Shown: positions 563 to 30,996 of the stretch, piece after piece
How the letters are laid out: every line of letters starts with the position of its first letter
How positions within the stretch are numbered: the first letter of the stretch is position 1
Assembly: GCA_049510745.1 (NCBI GenBank)
Contig: JBEKYR010000003.1
Coordinates: 189,269-253,268 of the forward strand
DNA length: 64,000 nt
Direction of reading: 5' to 3'
From: Verrucomicrobiota bacterium
GTDB taxonomy: Bacteria > Verrucomicrobiota > Verrucomicrobiia > Limisphaerales > Palsa-1400
Notes under the pieces: model-generated
What the model was told of the DNA's origin: nothing
The model's database searches: none
The model's input: the letters and a program-made list of their open reading frames with translations, nothing else
Made by a program: the position numbers and the translations under genes

Positions 563-1552
563 ATGATCCTGTTATTAGGCGCCAGCGGATACGTTGGCAA
601 GACTTTCGCCAGCGAGTTGCGAAGGCGGGGCCATTCCTTTATCCCGCTGACCCGCCGCGCCTTCGACTACACGCGGTTTGATTTCCTGTTCGATTATCTT
701 CGCACCATGCGGCCGGTCTTTCTCGTCAACGCCGCCGGTTATGCGGGCAGCGGGAACGGACACGTGACGGCGGCAGAACGGGAGAAGATGATCGCGGCCA
801 ATGCCATCCTGCCGCAGATGATCGCCCGCGTCTGCCTGATGACCAACACCCCCTGGGGGCATGTGTCTTCAGGGTCGATCTATTGCGGCGCCAAAGTCCT
901 GCGCCGGGGAACGGTGGAAATTGAAAGACACCTCGGACGGCCCGATCTGCTCGACCTCTTTGAAACGCATCCCGAAAGGTTCCGCGGCTTTACGGAATGG
1001 GACGAGCCTAATTTCTCCTTCCGCTCCGCCCCGTGCGATTTCCACAGCGGAACCAGGGCTTTGGCGGAGGAAGCCATCCGCGACCTCGGTCAAAGTTACA
1101 TCTGGCGGCTGCGGCAACCCTTCAATGAGCGGGACGAACCCTGCAACTGGCTCTCCCAAGTGCGGCGCAACGACGAGGTTCATGACAACATTAACTCGTT
1201 TTCCCACCTGGAGGATTGCGTCAAAGCCTGCCTGGACCTCTGGGAAATACGGGCGCCCTTTGGCATTTACAATGTCACCAATCCCGGCGCCATGACCCTC
1301 CGCCACGCCGCCGCCGAGATGCAACGCATCGTCAAATCCGGTCCGCATGTGCTGCCGGGTGAAGAGCAGGAGACGGCCAAATCGCCCAGGTCCAACTGCA
1401 TCCTCGACGCCGCCAAGCTGCTCAAAACCGGCGTCAAGCTGCGCCCCCTTTCCGAGGCGTTTGAGGATTGCCTCGACCGGCTGCGTCTGACTTCGCGGAC
1501 GGCAAGAACATTCGATGCGGTTTCCAGATACCCGGCCCTGGCCTATCACTAG
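563..1552 (+). CDS. RmlD/RfbD-like NAD(P)-dependent sugar-nucleotide reductase/epimerase (SDR) with altered catalytic motif
   Basis: GASGYVG Rossmann motif, VNAAGY, HVSSGSIY, GIYNVTNPG, PRSNCILD; follows rfbB. The expected YxxxK reads HSGTR. Confidence 0.8.
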   Translation: MILLLGASGYVGKTFASELRRRGHSFIPLTRRAFDYTRFDFLFDYLRTMRPVFLVNAAGYAGSGNGHVTAAEREKMIAANAILPQMIARVCLMTNTPWGHVSSGSIYCGAKVLRRGTVEIERHLGRPDLLDLFETHPERFRGFTEWDEPNFSFRSAPCDFHSGTRALAEEAIRDLGQSYIWRLRQPFNERDEPCNWLSQVRRNDEVHDNINSFSHLEDCVKACLDLWEIRAPFGIYNVTNPGAMTLRHAAAEMQRIVKSGPHVLPGEEQETAKSPRSNCILDAAKLLKTGVKLRPLSEAFEDCLDRLRLTSRTARTFDAVSRYPALAYH

Positions 1553-1651
1553 GCGGGGGCGCAAGGGCCTCGCGGCCTCAACATAGTCGGTCGAAACTTC
1601 CCGGCGATGCCGGGCACGCCAGACCAATACCCGAAAGAAAAGAGTCATTCT

Positions 1652-2575
1652 ATGCCTGATCCTGAACCTGCCGTCCCTGCCCGCCTCGTTTTCCGCCGCC
1701 AACTGATCCTGCTGGCGGTGGTCGCGGGGCTGTTGCTCCTGTGCTTTGGCCGGCCATTGCTGCAATTGATCACGTTCTCGCTGCACGACGAATTGTTCTC
1801 GTACATCCCCCTGATTCCGTTCATCAGCGCCTATTTCATTTGGATCAACAGGCAACGTTTTGTGCCCGACCTCCTGCCTTGTTGGTTTGGGGCCATTTTT
1901 TTTGGCCTCGCCGGCTCGGCTCTCGTCACCGGGTATTGGATCGCGGCCCGGTCCGGGTGGCTGCCGGCGAAGCAGGATTACCTCTCATTGATGACGCTGT
2001 CCTTTCTTTGCTTTTTCTGGGGCGGCTGCCTGGCGCTGCTCGGATCGAAGATGCTGCGGCAGGTGCTCTTTCCCGCCGCCTTCCTTATCTTTGCCGTGCC
2101 GCTTCCGACGGTTTGGATGGCGCCCATCGACACGTTCTTCCAATACACCTCGGCCACCGCCGCCCAGGGGTTCTTCGGCCTCTACGGCACCCCGGTGCTC
2201 CGGGACGGACTGGACCTGCATTTGCCGGGTTTCGCCTTGACAGTCGCTCCTGAATGCAGTGGCATTCATTCCACTCTGGTTCTGTTTATGACCAGCTTTA
2301 TGGCGGGTTATTTGTTTTTGGATCGGTCCTGGCAACGCGCCCTTTTGGTGCTGGCGGTCGTCCCTTTGGCCATCCTCAGAAACGGTTTCCGCATTTTCGT
2401 CGTCGGCGAGTTGTGCGTTCATATCGGTCCCGATATGATCAACTCCCCCATCCATCGAAAAGGCGGGCCGATTTTCTTTGCCCTGTCGCTCATTCCGTTC
2501 TTGTTGTTTCTGGTTTTTCTGAGAAGACTCAACCCTGCTGCGCGGCCGCCGCTCAAACCGGAGCCGCAACCCTGA
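1652..2575 (+). CDS. Exosortase family protein (resembles the verrucomicrobial XrtC type)
   Basis: Multi-TM protein with Cys (VAPECSGIHS), Arg (ILRNGFRI) and His (SPIHRKGG) in exosortase triad order. Start may be 1607 or 1652. Confidence 0.85.
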   Translation: MPDPEPAVPARLVFRRQLILLAVVAGLLLLCFGRPLLQLITFSLHDELFSYIPLIPFISAYFIWINRQRFVPDLLPCWFGAIFFGLAGSALVTGYWIAARSGWLPAKQDYLSLMTLSFLCFFWGGCLALLGSKMLRQVLFPAAFLIFAVPLPTVWMAPIDTFFQYTSATAAQGFFGLYGTPVLRDGLDLHLPGFALTVAPECSGIHSTLVLFMTSFMAGYLFLDRSWQRALLVLAVVPLAILRNGFRIFVVGELCVHIGPDMINSPIHRKGGPIFFALSLIPFLLFLVFLRRLNPAARPPLKPEPQP

Positions 2576-2576
2576 T

Positions 2577-5500
2577 ATGATTATGAGGATGTTTCATCGT
2601 CAATGGCCTCGCTTCCTGGCGCTGGCCTTGTGCCTGGCGCTGGGTGCCGGATGCACCAAGGCCGCGCGGGCCAAAAGACTCTTGGCTTCCGCCGAACGCG
2701 ATTTTCAAACTCAACGCTACGATGCTGCGGAGGTCGAGTACGAAGCCGTGCTGCGCTTGTCGCCCCTCAATCCGGTGGCCATTCGCCAGTTGGGATTGAT
2801 CTATTTCGAGGAGGGCCAGATGCCCAAAGCCTACGCCTATTTGGTCAAATCCCACGAACAGGATGCAAAGAATCCCGGCGTCCAACTCAAACTGGCGCAA
2901 ATCTATCTCGGCGCCGGAAAGGCCGCCGAAGCGGCGGACCTGGCCCAAACGTACTTGCAAACTGACCCCACCAATGAGCACGCCCTCCTGGTTCTGGTCG
3001 ATTCGGCCCGTTCCTCCGCTGCTTTGGCCACTGTTCGCAGCCAGATTGAAGAATGGGCGCACGGGGGCAAAGACGCCGCCGCCTATCACGCGGCTCTGGG
3101 CTGGATCGATTTGCGGCAACAAAAAACGGCCGACGCGGAAATCGAATTGCAAACAGCCCTGCGCCTGGATCCCAAGCTCAGTACCGCTCACCTCGGCATG
3201 GCCAGCGTCTATTTCGCCCGCAAAGACACCAATAACCTGGCGCAGGCGCTCAAGACGGCGGCCGACTTGTCTCCTCCTCGTTCTTCCACCCGGCTCAAAT
3301 ACGTGGAATACAAGCTGCAATTCGGCCCCGCGGACGAAGCCAAACAAATCCTGGAAGACATTACCCGCCAGGCCCCTGACTATATTCCGGCCTGGAACCA
3401 CCTGATGAAGATCGCCTACTCCGAGCGCAAATACGATGACTGCGCCGCCTGCGTGGCCAAAATCCTCGCCCGCGACCCCTCCAACATGGACGCCCTCCTG
3501 CAATCCGGAAACCTGGCCCTGGCCAGACACAAGGTCGCCGACGCCGTCAGCCAGTTCGAACGCCTCGACGCCAACGTCAATCGAAAGGCGCCGCAGGTCA
3601 AGTACTATCTGGCCCTGGCTTATTTGCTCAACGGGGAGACGGCCAAAGCGACGGCCAGCCTCCGCGCCGCCCTGGCCTTGGAGCGCGGTTACGCTCCCGC
3701 CCTCCTTCTGCTGGCGGAACTGGACGTTCGCGCCGGCGATTCGCCCGAAGCGGTCACGCTCCTGACCCAGTTGATCAAGAGCCAGCCTGAGAACGTCCAG
3801 GCGCATTTGCTTCTGGCCCAGGCTTATTTGGCCCTGCGGCAGATCGATCAAGCCTTGGTAGTCTATGTCCGCATGGCCCGGTCCTTTCCCAGGAACGCCC
3901 AAATCCCGTTCTTGATCGGCCGCGTTTATGAAAGCCAGGGAGACATCGCCCACGCGCGCGAAGCCTATGAGAGGTCGCTCGTGTTGCAACCGGGTTACTT
4001 GGCCGCTTTGGAGAACATTACGGACCTGGACTTGGCCGCACAGCGCTTTGACGACGCCGATGCGCGGGTGACGGAGGAAATAAAAAGAACTCCAAAGGCG
4101 GCTGAACCCTGGCTCTTGCAGGGGCGCATCCGCTGGGCTCAAGGGCAGACCAACGAGGCGGAGTCGGCCATGTCCAAGGCCGTGGGACTCAACCCGGATT
4201 ACCCCCCGGCTTACCTGGCCCTGGCTCAATTCTACCTGGCGGCCCACGAGGAAGAGCAGGCCTTGGATCGCTTGAACCGTTTGGTCGCCAAAACCAACGA
4301 TGCCACCGCCCTGATCGAGATCGGCATGATCCATCAGGAACAGCGCCAGTTCGAACCGGCCCGCGCCGCCTACGAAAAGGCGCTCGCTGTCAACCCTAAA
4401 TTATCCGCGGCCTTGAACAACCTCGCCTACTTGTACTCCGAATTCCTCGGCAACCTCGACCGCGCCGCCCAACTGGCCCAATCGGCCCGGGACCTGCAAC
4501 CCTTCAGCCCCTACACGGCCGACACCTTGGGCTGGATTCTCTTCAAGCAAGGCCAATACCCTCGCGCCCTCACCCTCCTGCAGGAGAGCGAGGAAAAACA
4601 GCCCAACGATCCCGAAGTGGCCATGCACCTGGGCATGGCCTACTACATGATGGAGGAGGAAGACCTCGCCCGCCTCTATTTGCAGCGCGCGGTGGACAGC
4701 CGCACGGACTTCCCCGCCAAGGAGCAGGCGCGCCAATGCCTGGCCTTCCTGGCCATCGACCCGCAGAAGGCCACTCCCGCCATGATTGATGACTTGCAAA
4801 AGCGAGTGCATGAGAACCCCCACGACCCCATACCCCTGACGCGCCTGGCCGCCATCCAGGAGCGCCAGGGCGAGTTGGATAAAGCCTCCCAAGCCTATCA
4901 ATCCCTCATCCAGCAAAACCCCCGGGATTTGCAGGCCATCATCAAGCTGGCGCGGCTCTCTGCCGGACCGCTCAAAGACCCCCGCAAAGCGCTGACCCTG
5001 GCCAAGTCAGCCCATGACTTGGCGCCCAATGATCCCCGCGCCGCCAGCCTGCTCGGCGAGTTGGTCTTTCAAAGCGGCGATTATCCCTGGGCTTTGAGCC
5101 TGCTGAAAGAAGCGGCCAATCAATTGACCAATCAACCCACTGTGCTCTACGACCTTGCCTGGGCCTATTATGCCGCCGGCCGCGCCGCCGAGGCGGATGC
5201 CAACATGGAAGCGGCCGTCGCTTTCAGCAACGCCCTGCCCACCCTGGAGGACGCCCGGCAATTTCTCGCCCTGCGAGCCGCCGTCAAAGACCCGGCCCAG
5301 GCGCGCGCGGCCGGCGCGCAAGCGCAAAGCATTCTGCAGAAACAGCCCCGCTATCTGCCCGCTCTCATGGTCTCGGCTCTGTTGGACGAGCAGCAGGGCG
5401 CCTCCAAAGAAGCCGCCGACATCTATACGCAAGTCCTTAACGACTATCCGCTCTTCACCCCGGCCCTGCGCCAATTGGCCATCCTCTACACCCGCAGCGG

Positions 5501-23309: not shown

Positions 23310-24560
23310 TTGACATTTGTGAGAGCCACTCAGAAAGAAGTCTTGGCCATCGCCATTTTCTGCGTCACCTATCTGCTCATCAGCGGGCGGAGCTTGAAGA
23401 TATTGCCGCTGAACCGGCCCGCGGCAGCGTTGTTGGGCACGGTCCTGATGGTGGCCTGCGGGGTCGTGACTCCGCAGCAGGCTTATCGATCCGTCGATTA
23501 TGATACGCTGGTGTTGTTGCTGGGAATGATGCTCATCAGCGCGTATCTTTTCCTGGCGGGATTTTTCGATTGGGCGGCGCACTGGATTTTGCGGCGCGCC
23601 CAAACGCCGCAAGCCCTGCTGCTCTATTTGCTCCTGGCTTCCGGGGTTCTCTCGGCCTTGCTGGTCAACGACGCCGTTTGTCTCATGCTCACTCCCCTGG
23701 TGGTGGCGGTGATCGTTCGTGGCAAACTGCCGCTGCCGCCCTATCTGCTGGCGTTGGCCATGAGCGCCAACGTCGGCAGCGTGGCGACGCTGGTGGGAAA
23801 TCCGCAAAACATGATCATCGGCCATCTCTCGAAAATTCCTTTCGCGCGGTTCTCCGCCTCTCTCTTGCCGGCCGCCGTCGCCGGACTGGTGGTCCAGTAC
23901 CTCATTCTGCGAATCGGCTTTCGCAAGATACTTGGCGAAGCTGCCCTTTGCCGACCGGAAGCCGAACCGGCCAAAGTGGATCGCCGGCTTCTGGTGTTGA
24001 CGTGCGTTGTCCTGGTGCTGGTGTTTGCCGGCTTCGTCGCGGGCCTCGATTTGTCATGGACGGCGCTGGGGGGCGGGGTGGTGCTGATGGTGCTGGGCCG
24101 GCGCGACACCCACGAGGTGCTCAAGTTGGTGGATTGGCACCTGTTGGTTTTTTTCGCCGGGCTGTTCGTCGTCGTGGAGGCGCTCGGCGCCACTGGGTTG
24201 CCCGGCCAAATCTATCAGCATTTTCGCGGCGTCTTTGGAGTTTCCGCCTCGAGTCAGGCCTGGAATCTGGCTTGGTTCTCCGCGCTGGGATCGAACCTCT
24301 TCTCGAACGTTCCCTACGTGCTCCTGGCGGGGAAATGGATGAACAGCTTCGCGCACCCGGACTTGATGTGGAAAGTCATGGCGCTGGCCACGACGTTCGC
24401 GGGCAATCTCACCATCCTCGGCTCGGTTGCCAACATCATCGTGCTGGAATCGGCCCGCCGGCACGTGCAATTTGGCTTTTGGGACTATGCCCGATACGGC
24501 ATCCCAGTCACGATCCTGACGACAGTTGTGGGCCTGTGTGTTCTCCTGTTGCTCGAATAA
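23310..24560 (+). CDS. ArsB/NhaD/CitMHS-superfamily anion transporter
   Basis: [56 protein letters not shown]; many TM helices. Confidence 0.85.
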
Positions 24561-24613
24561 ATGGAAACAAACCGGGCCAAAGGCAGAGAATTCGCAACCT
24601 CACGCGGTGATTC

Positions 24614-26887
24614 TCAATCGCCCTGACCGAGCACGCCGCCCTGGCTGGCATTGCCGACCATCTTCCGGTAGCGCGCCAGCCACCCGGTGAGTTGGCGTTT
24701 GACGGGTTGGAAGGCTTTCTTGCGCTCGGCCAACTCGGTTTCCGGCACGCCGATGTCAATGCGGCGGTTGGGGAAATCGATGCGGATTCGGTCGCCGGGT
24801 TTGAGCAAGCCGATGGGGCCGCCTTCTGCCGCTTCTGGCGAGACGTGGCCAATACAGGCGCCGGCAGTGCCCCCGCTGAAGCGACCGTCAGTGATGAGGG
24901 CGACTTTGTCGCCAAGCCCCATGCCGGCGATGTAGCTTGTGGGCGAAAGCATTTCCTGCATCCCCGGACCGCCCCGCGGACCTTCATTGCGGATGACAAC
25001 CACGTCGCCCGCTTTGACTTTCCCGGCCAGGACGCCTTCGCAAGCTTCCTCCTGGCTCTCGAAAATCACGCACGGCCCCTCGAAGACAAAGTTCTGGCCG
25101 CAATTCTTCTTGAACTCGGCGCTGATGCCGGCGGTTTTAACGACACTGCCTTCGGGCGCCAGTTGACCGTAAAGAATTGCCAGGCCCCCGTCCGGCGAAT
25201 AAGCCGTCGCCTGGGTGCGGATGCAGTCATAAGCGTCGAACCTGAATGCCGAATCGTAAGGAACCAGTCCCGACGGTTGCGCCGCGCTTAAGCGGTCAGG
25301 CCGGAATTCCAGGTAGGCCCGGTGAATCTGGCCGTTTTTGAATTTCGAGACGCGCTGCAAACAGAGCCGTGTCTTGGAGCCGCCTTTGGAGTATTGCCAC
25401 ATGAGGAGCACGGGCGTGCCTTTGAGAGCGGCCAATTCGGCGCGCACCAGGCCTTTGGCCTCCGCCAGCTTTTGCTCCAACCCCGCGCGAATGGCCTCCC
25501 GTCCCCTCAACACAGTCTCCGGCGCAACCACCACTTCGGCATCGTCGGTAAAGAGCAGGGACTGTGTTTCGGCGTCGCCCGCGTTCCAAGCTGCGGCTTT
25601 GCGCCAAAGCGTGATGGCGTGGCCATCGGCGGGCAGGAACATCATGGGCTTGGGCGCCAGATTGCCGCTTTCGGTGCGGGCTGCGGGGCCAAGTTTGTCC
25701 GCCGGGTCGAGCACGATGGCGGAGGCGCCCGAGACACGGGCGGCTTTCGCACAAGGCAGGCAACTCTCCGACCGCACATCCCAGTCGTCGATGTTCCCGC
25801 CCAGCGTCTTGCCGGTGACGGTCCTGCACGAGGTGTTCAGGGCCCCGGCCCGTTTCAACTCGCCAAGAATGGTGTGGATGCCGCCGGCACGATGGATGTC
25901 TTGCAGGTGGTAGCTCGCAGAGGGTGAGACTTTGCACAAGCAGGGGACGCGCCGGGAAATGGCGTCGATGCGCGCGATGTCATACGGGATGCCCGCTTCG
26001 CGCGCGATGGCCAGCGTGTGCAGAATGGTATTGGTGGAACCCCCCATCGCGACGTCCAGGCTCAGGGCGTTGTCGAACGCCTCGAGTGTGGCGATGTCGC
26101 GCGGCTTCAGGTCCGACTCAACCAGCTTGATAATCTGCCGGGCGGCCCAGCGGTAGAGGCTTTCGCGTTCTTTCGATACGGCAAGGATCGTGCCGTTGCC
26201 GGGCAAGGCCATGCCGAGCGCCTCGCACAAACAGTTCATCGAGTTGGCGGTGAACATGCCCGAGCAGGAACCGCAGGTCGGGCAGGCGCTCTGTTCGAGC
26301 TTCTTCAAGTCCGCTTCGGTGATTTTGCCGGTCTGCAACTGGCCGACTCCTTGAAAGACAGAGATGAGATCCGATGTTTTCGCCGCGGGTTGCAGATGCG
26401 CCGGAAGCTCGCCCTGCCCGGCGGCAGCTTCCGCGATGCCCGCAGCCATCGGCCCGCCGCTGACAAAAATGGCCGGGATGTTCACGCGCATGGCGCCCAT
26501 CAACATGCCGGGGACGATCTTGTCGCAGTTCGGGATGCAAACCATCCCATCGAAACAATGCGCCATGACCATGGATTCGACGCAATCGGCAATGAGTTCG
26601 CGCGAGGGCAGCGAATACTTCATGCCGCCGTGGCCCATGGCGATCCCGTCATCAATGCCGATCGTGTTAAAGATGAACGGCACGCCCCCCGCCTCACGCA
26701 CCAGGCGCTTCACCAACATGCCAACTTCGTTCAGGTGGGCGTGGCCGGGGATGCAATCGGTGTAGCTGTTGCAGATGGCGATGAACGGCTTGTTGAAGTC
26801 CTCTTCTGACTCGATGGAGCCGGTGGCCCGCAGCAGGCTGCGATGCGGCGCGCGTTCGGCGCCTTTTTTAATCATGTCAGAGCGCAT
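24614..26887 (-). CDS. ilvD: Dihydroxy-acid dehydratase with an internal SnoaL/NTF2-like insertion
   Basis: [81 protein letters not shown]; 757 aa. Confidence 0.95.
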
Positions 26888-26937
26888 AGTGTTTTCATTT
26901 TGCGTGGGAAGGGGAAATCTCCCGTCCACGCAGTCGT

Positions 26938-27009
26938 GTTGGTAGGAGTTATCAGCTCGGAAATACTCCGGCGGTTTTCCCTTGCAGGATGGCAAACTCC
27001 ATTGCCGAT
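26938..27009 (-). ncRNA. Fluoride riboswitch (crcB motif) in the ilvD leader
   Basis: Minus strand GGCAATGGAGTTTGCC...AAACCGCCGGAGTATTTCCGAGCTGATAACTCCTACC: P1 GGCAA/TTGCC, pseudoknot GGAGTT/AACTCC, conserved AAACCGC and GCTGAT..CTCCTAC. Confidence 0.88.
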
Positions 27010-27020
27010 GGATCGCGCTC

Positions 27021-27049
27021 TCAATACAGGTTCTCGAAATCATTGGCAA
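27021..27049 (-). promoter_or_regulatory. Candidate sigma-70 promoter for the riboswitch-ilvD transcript
   Basis: Minus strand TTGCCA-N17-TATTGA, placing +1 a few nt before the aptamer. Confidence 0.45.
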
Positions 27050-27187
27050 GCGATTTCAGGGCGTTTTCAGGGTTGGATTTTTCATCCGTTTTTGGGCGTG
27101 ATTACTCTGCACGATTTGTTGCGGGCGCAAGTCGAGAAGGCGGGCGGATAGCAAACCACCGGTGTTTTTTGACGCGCCCGGACCCGT

Positions 27188-28393
27188 TCAATCCCAAGGG
27201 ATCATCGGCACGGTCGCGCCGGCGGCAAGGGTGGTCTTCGGGGGAATATCCACCAACCCGCTGGCCCGCGCCATCGCGCTGAGGAGGTGGGAGGATTGAC
27301 CGCCGGCGGAGCGGATCGCGCCAAGGGCGTCGAGCGTGACGCGCGCAAACTGGCGCCGTTCGCCGGGATTGGCCAGCGGTTCGGACAACGTCGCCGGAAT
27401 CGTCCTTGGGAACACATCGCGCGCGCCCTGCATCCGCAGCAACGCCGGCCGCGCCAGCAGGAAGAAAGTGACCAGCGCGGAGGCGGGATTGCCCGGCAAC
27501 CCGAAGAACAGCTTGTCCTTCCATCGCCCGAAAGCAAACGGTTTGCCCGGCCTCATCGCCACGGTCCAGAAATCCAGCCCCCCGCCGATGGCGGTGAAGG
27601 CCGCCTTGACCCAATCCATTTCGCCGACCGACACTCCGCCAGTGGTGATGACCAGGTCGCATTGCGCCAGCGCCCCTTCCAAGGCCGATTGGGTCGCGGC
27701 CAGATCATCCGGCGCCAGGGGATAAAGGGTGGGAACGGCGCCGGCCTGTTGCGCCAGGGCGGCCAGGCCGGCGCGATTGCTTTCGTAGATCGTGCCCGGA
27801 GCCAGGGGCTGGCCCGCTTCGCGCAATTCGTTTCCGGTCGCCAGCAACCCCGCCGTCGGACGCCGCCCGGCGCGCACGGAGGAAATTCCCGCCGCCGCCA
27901 GCAAGCTCAGGCGCGCGGCCGTCAGTTTTTCGCCGGCCTCCACCAGCCGCGCCCCGGCTTTCACATCCCCGCCGCGGAATCGGACGTTCTCCCACGGGGC
28001 GGCGCGCTGGGCAAAGAGCGCGCGCGCCGGGTCTTGCGCGTTCAGCCGGACCTCCTCCTGCATGACGACGGCGTCCGCGCCGGGCGGGAGGATCGAGCCG
28101 GTGAACACCCGCGCGCACGTCCCCGCCTCCACGCATTTGTCAAATATAACCCCGGCGGGCGCGGCGCCAATGACCCGCAACGCCACGGGCGAGTCCGCCG
28201 ACGCGGAGACCAAATCCGCCGCCCGCACCGCGTAACCGTCCATGGCGGAATTGTCGGCGGGCGGCAGGTCCACCGTGGAGAGCAGAGGCTCGGCGACGAA
28301 GCGGCCCAGCCCCTCGCGCAGCTCGACCGTTTCAAAGGGCAGGGGTTGGACGGCGGCCAGAATCTGCTCGCGGGCTTGCTCCAGGCTCAACAT
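27188..28393 (-). CDS. moeA: Molybdopterin molybdotransferase
   Basis: DNSAMDGYAV, FTGSILPPGADAVVMQE, ATGNEL, ITTGGVSVG, MRPGKP, GLPGNPAS. Confidence 0.93.
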   Translation of the reverse strand: MLSLEQAREQILAAVQPLPFETVELREGLGRFVAEPLLSTVDLPPADNSAMDGYAVRAADLVSASADSPVALRVIGAAPAGVIFDKCVEAGTCARVFTGSILPPGADAVVMQEEVRLNAQDPARALFAQRAAPWENVRFRGGDVKAGARLVEAGEKLTAARLSLLAAAGISSVRAGRRPTAGLLATGNELREAGQPLAPGTIYESNRAGLAALAQQAGAVPTLYPLAPDDLAATQSALEGALAQCDLVITTGGVSVGEMDWVKAAFTAIGGGLDFWTVAMRPGKPFAFGRWKDKLFFGLPGNPASALVTFFLLARPALLRMQGARDVFPRTIPATLSEPLANPGERRQFARVTLDALGAIRSAGGQSSHLLSAMARASGLVDIPPKTTLAAGATVPMIPWD

Positions 28394-28404
28394 TCTCAAT
28401 CCCC

Positions 28405-30144
28405 CTATTCGGAGGAGGTGGTCAGAAGGGTCTGCTCCAGGGTGGAAAAACCGTCCCTCACCTTTTCCAGGCCGACGGTGCGGAGCGTTTTCATGCCCTG
28501 GGCGATGGCGATTTTGGCCAGTTCCTGCGCGCTGGCGCGCTTGATGATGAGTTTGCGGAGTTCATCGCTCATGGTCATCGCCTCGATGATGGCCAGGCGG
28601 CCGGAGTAGCCGGTATTCTTGCAGCGCTCGCAGCCGCGCCCGCGGTGAAGTTGGGCGCCCGCAAAGTAGTTTGGATCAATGCCCAAATCCTCGAACATCT
28701 TGTCCGGGTAGCTCACCGGTTCCTTGCAACTGGAGCAAATCCGGCGCATCAACCGCTGCGCGCAGGACAAAATCACCGCCGACGAAATCAAAAACGGCGC
28801 GATCTCCATGTCATCCAGCCGCGCAATCGCGCCCGCGGCGTCGTTGCAGTGCATGGTGCTCAGGACCTGGTGGCCGGTCAGGGCGGACTCGACCGCGATT
28901 TCCGCCGTCTCCGTGTCCCGGATTTCCCCGATCATGATGATGTCCGGGTCCTGGCGCAGGATGGAGCGCAGGGCGTTGGCGAAGGTCAGGCCAATCTCCT
29001 TCTTGACAGGCACCTGGTTGACGCCGGGAAGCTGGAACTCGACCGGGTCCTCGACCGTCACGATGTTGAATTCCGGCCCGTTCAACTCGTTGAGGGCGGA
29101 ATAAAGGGTCGTGGTCTTGCCCGAACCGGTCGGGCCTGTGACCAGAATCAGGCCGTGGGGCGCATCGACCGCGGCTTTGAAACGCTTGAAGGTTTCGGCA
29201 TCGATCCCCAGCTTGTCCATGCTGGCGGAAAGGTTTGACTTGTCCAGCACGCGCAAGACGCATTTTTCGCCGTGAACGGTGGGCAGAAAGGAGACGCGCA
29301 AATCGACGTCGCGGCCGCCGACGCGCACGCGCATGCGTCCGTCCTGGGGCAGGCGCCGCTCGGCGATATCGAGGCTGCTCATGACTTTGATGCGGGAGGT
29401 CAAGGCCACCTGCAGGTTCTTGGGCGGGGGCGGCATGTCCACCAGGCCGCCGTCGATACGATAGCGCAGCCGCACCATGCCTTCGAACGGCTCGATGTGG
29501 ATGTCGCTGGCGCGGTCTTTGATGGCTTGCACCAGAATGAGATTGGCCAGCTTGATGACCGGCGCCTCCTCGGTCGAGGCGGTCAATTGCGCCAGATCGG
29601 TCGTTTCGGCCGCCTCCTGGGTCACCTCCAGGTTGTCCGCCTCCGCTTCCGCCTCCGCCTGCTTGGCGGCGTCCTGGATGATTTCCTCCATGCTGGTGGA
29701 GCGGGCCCCCTCGAGGTTGGCCAGTTTGTCGAGGATGGCCTTTTCCGAAGCGATGAGCGTGGAGACTTCCAACTTGGTCATGCGCTTGATGTCGTCCACC
29801 GCCAAAACGTTGAGCGGATCCGCCATGGCCAGAAAGAGCCGGTTGCCCAGCCTGGAAATGGGAAGGACCTTGTAGTTGGTCGCCATGTCGCGCGGCACCA
29901 AGTCCGCCACCTCCGGCGCCAGGCCCAGGCGGGCCACGTTGATCGGCGGGGTGTTCAAGACCCGGCCCATCGAGACGACCAGGTCGTTGTCCGTGACGTA
30001 GGCCTTTTCGATCACCAGTTTGAGGAAGCGCGTGCCCTCCTTTTTCTGCTTCTCCATCAACTCCTCGACTTGCGCCGTGTTCAGCAAGCCGTCCTCGACC
30101 AGGGCGTCGGCGATGCGTTCTCCAAGTGACTTGACAGGCGGCAT
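28405..30144 (-). CDS. pilB: Type IV pilus/T2SS assembly ATPase (PilB/GspE family)
   Basis: ASDIHIEP, RRLPQDGR, GPTGSGKTTTLY, VEDPVE, LRQDPDIIMIGEIRD, Zn motif CSSC...CERC. Confidence 0.88.
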   Translation of the reverse strand: MPPVKSLGERIADALVEDGLLNTAQVEELMEKQKKEGTRFLKLVIEKAYVTDNDLVVSMGRVLNTPPINVARLGLAPEVADLVPRDMATNYKVLPISRLGNRLFLAMADPLNVLAVDDIKRMTKLEVSTLIASEKAILDKLANLEGARSTSMEEIIQDAAKQAEAEAEADNLEVTQEAAETTDLAQLTASTEEAPVIKLANLILVQAIKDRASDIHIEPFEGMVRLRYRIDGGLVDMPPPPKNLQVALTSRIKVMSSLDIAERRLPQDGRMRVRVGGRDVDLRVSFLPTVHGEKCVLRVLDKSNLSASMDKLGIDAETFKRFKAAVDAPHGLILVTGPTGSGKTTTLYSALNELNGPEFNIVTVEDPVEFQLPGVNQVPVKKEIGLTFANALRSILRQDPDIIMIGEIRDTETAEIAVESALTGHQVLSTMHCNDAAGAIARLDDMEIAPFLISSAVILSCAQRLMRRICSSCKEPVSYPDKMFEDLGIDPNYFAGAQLHRGRGCERCKNTGYSGRLAIIEAMTMSDELRKLIIKRASAQELAKIAIAQGMKTLRTVGLEKVRDGFSTLEQTLLTTSSE

Positions 30145-30150
30145 AACGGA

Positions 30151-30996
30151 TCAACGATAGGCTTTGGCCAGCACGCGCAGCAAATCGGCCGGCGCGGCCA
30201 GATACCAGAGCAGCCGGGTTTTGAGTCTCTCCTCCAGGTCCGCGGCGGCTTGTTTGTTGAAGGGGTTGGCGGTGGCGACCATGATGGTTTTGCTCATCCG
30301 GTCAAAGGGCGCCACGCACCAGCGCTGGCAAATCTCGCGCGAGGCCGACCGCAACAGGTCGATGTCCAGTTCGTATCGCTCCAGCGGAATATAGGCCAGG
30401 CGCGAACGGTCCGAGAGCAGCCTGAGCGAGGTCTCCACCGGCACCAATTGCCGTTCCCCAAGGTTGTGAATGAACGGCTCGACCGTTCTTGTCGGCGGTA
30501 TCGTCAGACTGGGCACGGGCCAGCAGGCCTCAAAATCGCCGACCGAGATGATCTTGCCCTCGACAAAATACTTGAACATGAGCTGGCGGCCATCATCGAC
30601 TTCCGGCTGGGCGGCGGCTTTGCCGGCGCCTTTTTTGGTCAGAGTGGTGGAGCTGCTTTTGACCGGCGCCTCCGCTTCCGGCGGGCGGTTGGTCAGATTG
30701 TTCGCCTTGCTCTCGATTTGCGCCATGGCCGCCACCGCGTCCTTGTCATCGGGGTGGCGCTGGAGGACGGTTTCGAATTCGAGGATGGCCGAAGAAAGCT
30801 GGCCCAACTGCACATAGGCCTGGGCGATGCGTTTGGAGGTGTCGATGACTTCCTTCTCCATCCCCAGCTTGAGATAGGCTTCCTTGAGGATTTCCAGCGA
30901 TTGATAATCCTGCGGCTGCGATTGAGTAATGACCTCGAACATCTCAATCGTCTGCCGCAATTGCGCCTCTTCGCCCGGATTTAATGTGCCAAGCAT
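30151..30996 (-). CDS. TPR plus GspE N-terminal (MshEN-like) domain protein without ATPase
   Basis: TPR-like N-terminus; C-terminal LAYIPLERYELD...CVAPFDRMSKTIMVATANPFN resembles the PilB N-domain. Confidence 0.65.
   Translation of the reverse strand: MLGTLNPGEEAQLRQTIEMFEVITQSQPQDYQSLEILKEAYLKLGMEKEVIDTSKRIAQAYVQLGQLSSAILEFETVLQRHPDDKDAVAAMAQIESKANNLTNRPPEAEAPVKSSSTTLTKKGAGKAAAQPEVDDGRQLMFKYFVEGKIISVGDFEACWPVPSLTIPPTRTVEPFIHNLGERQLVPVETSLRLLSDRSRLAYIPLERYELDIDLLRSASREICQRWCVAPFDRMSKTIMVATANPFNKQAAADLEERLKTRLLWYLAAPADLLRVLAKAYR

Follow-up and report, generated by a model that had tools for sequence, protein, structure and literature searches.

In the textbook arrangement of the fluoride riboswitch, the aptamer stands before crcB and DUF190 genes, and in Bacillus cereus crcB is controlled by such a riboswitch with a terminator-type expression platform. 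The inhibition of enolase by fluoride is textbook knowledge as well, and the ilv operons of enterobacteria are known to be regulated by leader-peptide attenuation. In Bacillota, ilvD and ilv operons are under T-box leaders, according to the available portion of one article (PMC12452182). In general, the genes found behind fluoride riboswitches are the main guide to how fluoride damages cells and how cells cope with it, through exporters, enolase, pyrophosphatase and pH homeostasis. The available portion of a 2024 review (PMC11139923) names exporters, Na+/H+ antiporters, pyrophosphatase, HAD phosphatases, formate hydrogen lyase and enolase, the last being frequent among the controlled genes; it also gives chorismate mutase as a common gene in the neighbourhoods of fluoride exporters. 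The locus described here lies in a window of 64,000 nucleotides (nt), that is, the whole stretch of DNA that was analysed, from a Verrucomicrobiota bacterium (contig JBEKYR010000003.1, positions 189,269 to 253,268). In it, a fluoride aptamer stands in the leader of ilvD, the gene for dihydroxy-acid dehydratase (DHAD). A preliminary description, made from the letters of the DNA, had called this a fluoride riboswitch controlling ilvD and had not counted ilvD among the standard members of the regulon. In effect, ilvD is absent from the gene lists in that portion of the review, and the review nowhere uses the terms dehydratase, branched, valine, leucine or isoleucine. A literature search returned no report of a fluoride riboswitch paired with ilvD or DHAD, although the original regulon tables of 2012 might list a rare ilvD. 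The locus is, then, a case of an established riboswitch class before a gene for which no report was found, and within its small clade the pairing has been fragile in evolution. As in the usual control of ilvD and ilv genes, a cis-acting RNA leader precedes ilvD, which is often monocistronic, but the signal here would be an inorganic toxic anion and not amino-acid or tRNA charging status.

By sequence and model criteria, the element before ilvD is a real crcB-type fluoride aptamer. When window positions 24000-30000 were compared by cmscan with all 4227 families of Rfam 15, RF01734 (Fluoride, crcB motif) was the one significant match; two further listed matches score far under their thresholds, and no T-box or other family was found there. 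The alignment spans positions 1-64 of the 64 in the model, without truncation, and the same match was recovered again by a whole-genome search. The aptamer and its parts, with the gene that follows, are:

26936-27015, minus strand: fluoride riboswitch aptamer, RF01734, 43.5 bits against a gathering score of 34, E 8.6e-10
26991-27006, minus strand: P1 hairpin, GGCAA (27006-27002) and TTGCC (26995-26991) around TGGAGT, from the cmscan alignment and the sequence
26958-26970, minus strand: P3 hairpin, CGGA (26970-26967) and TCCG (26961-26958) with the loop GTATT, from the sequence and RNAfold
26941-26956, minus strand: conserved 3′ core GCTGATAACTCCTACC, from cmscan, with columns invariant in 34 aptamers
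24614-26887, minus strand: ilvD, dihydroxy-acid dehydratase, long form of 757 residues, from TIGR00110 and Pfam

The aptamer ends at 26936, in the 5′ leader and on the sense strand, which leaves a gap of 48 nt to the ATG at 26887. P1 is a consensus helix of 34 aligned aptamers, and its loop holds the 5′ pseudoknot strand GGAGTT (27000-26995); AAACCGC follows P1, and the 3′ pseudoknot strand AACTCC at 26950-26945 pairs with the first (GGAGUU/AACUCC in RNA). At the base of P3, the Rfam alignment has two non-canonical pairs. The Rfam consensus core (AUGG..GUU; AACCGCC; CUGAUGACUCCUAC) is matched throughout, except for a change of G to A in GAUGA, a variant that is also present in most aptamers of the host's family. 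All 12 columns that are invariant across 34 aptamers of the phylum, a set that includes this one, are kept. Thus, every hallmark that the preliminary description had named was found at its place, and the Rfam score of the minus strand, which it had proposed to obtain, exceeds the gathering threshold.

By protein models, the gene is assigned to ilvD. IlvD scores 765.4 bits with the TIGR00110 equivalog (cut-off 618.15) and 759.1 bits with NF002068 (cut-off 644), whereas its scores with the xylonate dehydratase, arabinonate dehydratase and Edd models stay under their cut-offs. Two Pfam domains, ILVD_EDD_N (residues 33-364) and ILV_EDD_C (554-750), flank a weak match to SnoaL_2. PNCDK (119-123), a 17-residue motif (202-218) and DGRFSG (667-672), which we take to be the catalytic and cluster motifs of the dehydratase family, do not vary among the 28 long and short IlvDs that were aligned. 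In the host genome (G000; 5.6 Mb, 85 contigs, 94% complete) there are two PF00920 genes, and the other one is a xylonate dehydratase of the YjhG/YagF type (TIGR03432, 1123.7 bits). By these assignments, ilvD is the only canonical DHAD gene of the assembled genome, with a second copy possible in the unassembled 6%. Genes for IlvC and for the large subunit of acetolactate synthase (ilvB) are present on other contigs, and the host appears, from its gene content, to make its own branched-chain amino acids.

A survey of related ilvD leaders, which had also been proposed beforehand, covered 41 related genomes (the host and 40 relatives) and metagenomes, where a scan with the insertion that marks the long form of IlvD (see below) as the query gave 22 true long-ilvD loci. 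In the nine other genomes with the long form, no aptamer before the gene for it was detected with Rfam; Acido-Lenti-1 RNA matches in these comparisons suggest Verrucomicrobiota as the phylum. The survey yielded one intact counterpart and two decayed ones. The intact one, on a peat-metagenome contig (L143), is the same leader, with an aptamer of 42.3 bits 48 nt before ilvD; the gene order there (1074-5378) is aptamer-ilvD-aptamer-crcB-DUF190-NuoH-like, and the second aptamer is a different one (35.9 bits). The leader of the relative G021 is homologous throughout (80% across 221 nt), but Rfam matches nothing in it at E <= 5, and several otherwise invariant bases are changed. Its broken aptamer scores 31 bits with R1, a family-tuned covariance model built from 34 aptamers of the host phylum, against 70.6 bits for the crcB-linked aptamer of the relative G001. 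Finally, the metagenome locus L142 retains only the 3′ part of the leader, the 5′ half being gone. Of the 12 ilvD genes in a maximum-likelihood tree, the eight closest group together with 100% support, and the leader bearers are scattered within this clade; the sister of L143 (100%) is L144, in which a tRNA gene takes the place of the leader. The simplest history would be a single gain of the leader in the ancestor of the clade, then repeated decay or replacement.

Where it is intact, the aptamer looks constrained. The aptamers of G000 and L143 are identical at 74 of 80 positions and their six differences preserve pairing, while third codon positions of ilvD have diverged by 18.2% between the two; if third positions serve as an approximate neutral standard, no more than six changes in 80 have a rough binomial P of 0.006. 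The hairpin that follows the aptamer (hairpin B, below) looks to have been kept even where sensing has been lost.

The fluoride locus and ilvD adjoin in yet another way in G001, a relative of the same genus. There, an aptamer and crcB stand directly downstream of the long ilvD and none stands upstream (L034 1124-1211); this aptamer scores 33.3 bits, just below the Rfam cut-off, and 70.6 bits with R1. The same ilvD-aptamer-crcB arrangement is seen in L146 (aptamer at 3954-4041), a metagenome contig that apparently matches G001, with which it shares the sequence upstream. Thus, the two loci are adjacent in these genomes even without an aptamer of ilvD's own.

The expression platform is best understood by reference to the canonical fluoride leaders of the family. 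In these, CUCCUACCG, the 3′ pseudoknot strand, pairs with CGGNAGGAG, and this helix is followed by a run of six or seven U residues and AUG. In the leader of the genome's own crcB gene (L001 1570-1612), as in others, the 3′ arm CGGNAGGAG is the Shine-Dalgarno (SD) sequence and the U run leads straight into the AUG, so that the helix is, by its layout, a terminator and an SD mask in one. In the host's crcB leader it is predicted at -18.1 kcal/mol. The ilvD leader shares with these leaders, the host's own before crcB-DUF190 included, the aptamer class, P1, P3, the pseudoknot and the conserved core, with a score above the gathering threshold. It also retains a potential pairing of CUCCU with a downstream GGGAG, as in the terminator/SD helix. 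By contrast, it would regulate ilvD and not an exporter, 32 nt separate its ancestral SD-like GGGAG from the start codon, and an extra conserved hairpin precedes the ATG. Two structures are thus of interest in the leader:

26909-26948, minus strand: helix A, terminator-like, CUCCU (26948-26944) with GGGAG (26923-26919) around a CACG/CGUG hairpin, -10.2 kcal/mol, z -2.3
26901-26932, minus strand: hairpin B, outer stem TGCGTGG/CCACGCA, inner stem GGGA/TCCC, no U-tract, -15.8 kcal/mol, z -3.5

Helix A, directly followed by the U-rich AUUUCCCCUU (26918-26909), occupies a position homologous to the terminator/SD arm of the canonical crcB leaders of the family. It is better in L143 (-11.6 kcal/mol, 11 pairs, then GCUUUUUCUU), and in both the G000 and L143 leaders it is part of the minimum-free-energy (MFE) fold of a transcript that ends at the U-rich tract. 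Blocking the pseudoknot strands, as a stand-in for bound fluoride, removes helix A from both folds. Hairpin B, found exactly where a further hairpin without a U-tract had been described, is mutually exclusive with helix A. Compensatory changes occur at two of its 10 pairs among three sequences, and the spacer and hairpin B together keep 30 of 35 bases in G021 despite the decayed aptamer there. No SD-like sequence precedes the ATG of ilvD, here or in relatives. The confinement of the pairing to a clade, its decay or loss in most members, the covariation in hairpin B and the overlap of a terminator-like helix with a pseudoknot strand are points that the preliminary description did not contain.

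The reading favoured here, with a rough probability of 0.55, is that the leader is a functional fluoride-ON riboswitch, a leaky attenuator that tunes the cell's only DHAD. Without fluoride, CUCCU would be free to pair with GGGAG and form the weak helix A just ahead of the U-rich tract, where a share of the transcripts would stop. With fluoride, the pseudoknot, stabilised by Mg-fluoride, would keep CUCCU, so that helix A would be blocked and the polymerase would read on. Once the next 20 nt had been made, the stronger hairpin B would sequester GGGAG. Given the weakness of helix A and its U-tract in this genome, a leaky switch is expected: basal IlvD would always be available for branched-chain amino-acid synthesis, and more of it would be made as fluoride rises. 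Such leakiness fits a genome with a sole DHAD and with ilvC and ilvB, where fully shutting off ilvD would kill the cell unless amino acids were supplied. The purpose would most likely be to offset the inhibition of a Mg2+- and Fe-S-dependent dehydratase, as has been proposed for riboswitch-controlled enolase. The leader itself would derive from a canonical fluoride leader, with hairpin B added later and serving to stabilise the mRNA or the read-through state; it would have been gained once in the small clade with long-form ilvD and since been lost or decayed in most members. If so, the locus would show how a new gene acquires a riboswitch leader that is afterwards remodelled, with its terminator eroded and a new hairpin gained. 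Control of ilvD by fluoride, as originally proposed, draws its support from genome architecture and conservation.

The same aptamer might instead act after transcription, through translation initiation or mRNA stability, and not by termination. The means could be hairpin B together with the A-rich, SD-less start region, or a Rho-dependent route by way of the C-rich, G-poor spacer CUCCUACCAACAC. Such a switch would agree with the absence of an SD-like sequence and, in the scan, of a canonical terminator from the leader, and with the state of hairpin B, which covaries, is conserved better than any other part of the leader and is retained in G021 although the aptamer there no longer works. Nevertheless, this retention in G021 argues for a role of hairpin B that is independent of fluoride. 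Moreover, hairpin B overlaps neither the aptamer nor the start codon, and no AUG-occluding pairing is conserved, the one candidate (AGAGCGC/GCGCUCU) being absent from L143 and G021. A post-transcriptional switch is, on balance, improbable.

Several other candidate elements in the leader were considered and rejected. Hairpin B is not taken as a terminator without a U-tract, given that the fluoride leaders of the family use classical terminators made of a hairpin and six or seven U residues. The long-range AGAGCGC/GCGCUCU pairing over the start codon, which appears in the MFE fold, was discarded for its absence from both homologues; transcription probably begins downstream of its 5′ strand. The only small upstream open reading frame, of eight codons (MKTLCALT), is not conserved in L143 and was set aside as a leader peptide. 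In-frame GTG codons inside hairpin B were likewise dismissed as alternative starts, as they are not conserved and all 24 long IlvDs begin with MRSD.

Upstream of the aptamer, a promoter-like element is found, as had been suggested before:

27021-27049, minus strand: promoter-like element, TTGCCA (27049-27044), a spacer of 17 nt and TATTGA (27026-27021), from reading of the sequence

This box is conserved in the L143 and G021 leaders, and 7 of 26 other fluoride leaders in the group have a comparable CTTGC[AC] box 33-45 nt ahead of P1. In L143, the stretch that matches the box doubles as the end of an open frame that lies upstream and has no Pfam match, and part of the conservation of the box may thus be that of inherited coding sequence. 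Window positions 27021-27083 (minus strand) are homologous to the tail of this longer L143 frame (361-1137, ...ALKMLADEFENLY...), which raises the prospect that the leader may have been carried to its place together with the tail of a neighbouring gene. Boxes of another kind are seen at more distant long-form ilvD loci (L148, L151, L152, L157, L158, L160, L161 and L162), where CGTGACA, about 17 nt and TAC..T or TAA..T stand approximately 40-80 nt before the ATG. The CGTGACA box is likely to be a promoter, of a type unlike the one before the riboswitch leader.

A number of observations weigh against the leaky attenuator. In the platform, helix A has only 5+4 base pairs and AUUUCCCCUU is a poor terminator tail; a consensus terminator scan found nothing in the ilvD leader; and hairpin B is thermodynamically favoured in both states in the MFE folds, so that switching would have to be kinetic. 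Of the plausible promoter, the box itself and its conservation stand, but a strict sigma-70 consensus scan of positions 24400-27400 returned no promoter-like site, TTGCCA-17-TATTGA included. Within the clade of eight, the leader is intact in two members (G000 and L143), decayed in two (G021 and L142) and replaced in four (G017, G001, L144 and L145). The G021 aptamer is identical to that of the host at 59 of 80 positions, about the neutral level (71% at third positions). In the ilvD gene of L143, two nucleotides are missing from a CGCGCG run at codon 95; this may reflect an error of assembly or a genuine frameshift in a dead gene. A search for RNA sequencing runs over positions 24600-27300 yielded none. 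Finally, among the papers listed in a literature search, none concerned the inhibition of DHAD by fluoride, judging by titles and the opening lines of abstracts.

Much of this would also be expected of an evolutionary leftover, in which the aptamer folds and may bind fluoride but the platform is degenerate and ilvD is in effect constitutive, with the leader heading to decay. The weak terminator-like helix, the poor U-tract and the formation of hairpin B in both states agree with this, and the decay and replacement in other members of the clade show that loss is tolerated. In addition, an ON switch is awkward before an essential single-copy biosynthetic gene. By contrast, a mere relic sits poorly with an ilvD aptamer that scores like the crcB aptamer of the same genome (43.5 versus 44.8 bits) and that has diverged less from L143 than synonymous sites have. 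In G021, where the constraint was lost, the aptamer decayed at about the neutral rate, and the intact state in G000 and L143 therefore looks maintained. The leftover is judged unlikely, and the leaky attenuator is retained as the preferred reading. Either way, the repeated loss of the leader in one small clade bears on how weak or conditional its selective benefit is.

The fluoride regulon of the host and its relatives provides the context in which the ilvD leader has to be placed. The second RF01734 match of the genome (44.8 bits, contig C12) is in the textbook position, before crcB and DUF190 as identified by Pfam. Across the 41 genomes, RF01734 matches at E <= 0.001 occur in 21 genomes, at 29 places, and the open reading frame after each was inspected, with representatives identified by Pfam and the rest by eye from their N-termini. 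The genes are crcB, DUF190, CLC, Na+/H+ exchangers, enolase (G006) and a metallophosphoesterase (G016); ilvD follows the aptamer at one of the 29 places, that of the window itself. RF01734 matches were obtained in 17 of 151 genomes sampled evenly from the phylum. No IlvD-like reading frame follows the aptamer at the 20 places inspected of the 22 outside the host genome (the other two being in G102 and G160), where crcB, MFS, outer-membrane efflux and Na+/H+ exchanger genes were found, three of them confirmed by Pfam. Likewise, among 80 ilvD loci from many other phyla, with up to 1.5 kb each, a regular expression and R1 detected no aptamer upstream of ilvD; one R1 match (E 0.79, L093) is on the opposite strand and downstream of ilvD. 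When 31 genomes of the host family were compared with the leader DNA, the closest in sequence to the ilvD aptamer was the enolase-linked one of G006, at 82% over 66 nt.

Some further placements of the aptamer were noted along the way. In G016 (L013), it precedes a calcineurin-like metallophosphoesterase gene, and in G006 (L030) an enolase gene, both by Pfam. In one genus of small genomes (2.3-2.4 Mb; G139, G157 and G178), each genome has three fluoride aptamers, two of which stand in tandem operons before OEP and MFS genes and not before crcB (L189, L191, L193, L196, L203 and L205).

In the relatives, then, the same class of aptamer precedes fluoride-sensitive or fluoride-related genes, namely those for enolase, metallophosphoesterase, CLC and Na+/H+ exchangers, and by analogy it is plausible that IlvD is itself a fluoride target. 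The closest parallel is riboswitch-controlled enolase: both are housekeeping, Mg2+-dependent enzymes of the dehydratase type under a fluoride-ON switch, which would presumably serve to out-titrate the inhibition. The parallel ends where enolase is a recurrent member of the regulon, whereas ilvD is not among the genes named in the available portion of the review (PMC11139923). With ilvD under such a switch, the Mg2+/Fe-S dehydratase of branched-chain amino-acid synthesis would be nominated as a further point of sensitivity to fluoride. A bolder proposal, which must be called tentative and somewhat unlikely, is that DHAD is a physiologically relevant fluoride target like enolase, that the peat-soil clade once had a fluoride island of the form aptamer-ilvD-aptamer-crcB-DUF190 (intact on L143), and that ilvD is a repeatedly recruited but unreported member of the regulon.

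It is also conceivable that the switch works although IlvD is not itself a target, the extra IlvD meeting a secondary need under fluoride stress. For instance, it could help under acid stress, as pyruvate would be diverted and reducing power consumed, or it could restore flux when pyruvate for the pathway runs short because enolase is inhibited. The portion of the review at hand (PMC11139923) couples fluoride stress with acidification and ranks Na+/H+ antiporters second in frequency among the genes linked to the riboswitch; Na+/H+ exchangers are also common behind aptamers in the relatives. Nevertheless, only ilvD is under the switch, and not ilvB, ilvC or the leu genes, which are on other contigs; this fits a single sensitive enzyme better than a response at the level of the pathway. 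Such a secondary need is regarded as unlikely.

The preliminary description had offered, as an alternative to up-regulation, that the cell uses a fluoride-tolerant IlvD variant. The protein is indeed unusual, as its 757 residues are outside the usual length of a two-domain IlvD (about 550-620 residues), the nearest type being the IlvD of about 553 residues from Bacillus and Chlorobium, at 61-66% identity. Most of the difference is due to one insertion, next to which two short ones are found:

25232-25777, minus strand: insertion of about 180 residues in IlvD (residues about 371-552), an NTF2/SnoaL_2-like domain, from alignment, Pfam and a structure model

The insertion sits between the two core domains and is absent from four aligned IlvDs of about 553 residues. 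SnoaL_2 (PF12680) was detected in 21 of 24 homologous inserts (best E 3.4e-10), and on this IlvD it scores 26.7 bits, just below the cut-off of 27. An AlphaFold2 model of the insert has a mean predicted local distance difference test (pLDDT) score of 80.3, and its top Foldseek matches are NTF2-like proteins, including 1tuh and ketosteroid isomerases, with a probability of 1.00, E of about 1e-6 and target-normalised template-modelling (TM) scores of 0.6-0.7. The nested domain is conserved in 24 long-form homologues, which come from an order-level group and from a metagenome-assembled genome of Fimbriimonadaceae. From its alignment and domain content, the protein is a variant architecture that is still within the IlvD family. 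Full-length relatives of it are present in 10 of the 41 genomes, in which the forms of IlvD are distributed as follows:

long form only: 8 genomes (host included)
both forms: 2 genomes
only an IlvD of about 580 residues, with about 40% identity to the long form: 26 genomes
no match at 1e-60: 5 genomes

The long form is thus the sole IlvD in seven relatives besides the host, all of them without an aptamer before ilvD. Because these seven rely on the long IlvD alone, it is better seen as a housekeeping variant of the order than as a fluoride-specific enzyme, and the idea of a tolerant variant is left without support.

The genes on either side of the leader and ilvD complete the picture of the locus:

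27188-28399, minus strand: moeA, molybdopterin molybdotransferase, from Pfam MoeA_N, MoCF_biosynth and MoeA_C
23310-24560, plus strand: gene for a CitMHS/ArsB-type transporter, convergent with ilvD, from Pfam CitMHS (246 bits)

The stop codon of moeA (27188) is on the same strand, 173 nt before the aptamer. Downstream, the next gene is the convergent one for the CitMHS-type transporter, so that ilvD is monocistronic and, as had been stated at the outset, no exporter follows it on its strand. Further upstream (28405-30996, minus strand), there is a gene for a T2SSE-type secretion ATPase with MshEN, a domain that binds cyclic di-GMP, and it is preceded by one for a TPR protein that also ends in MshEN.

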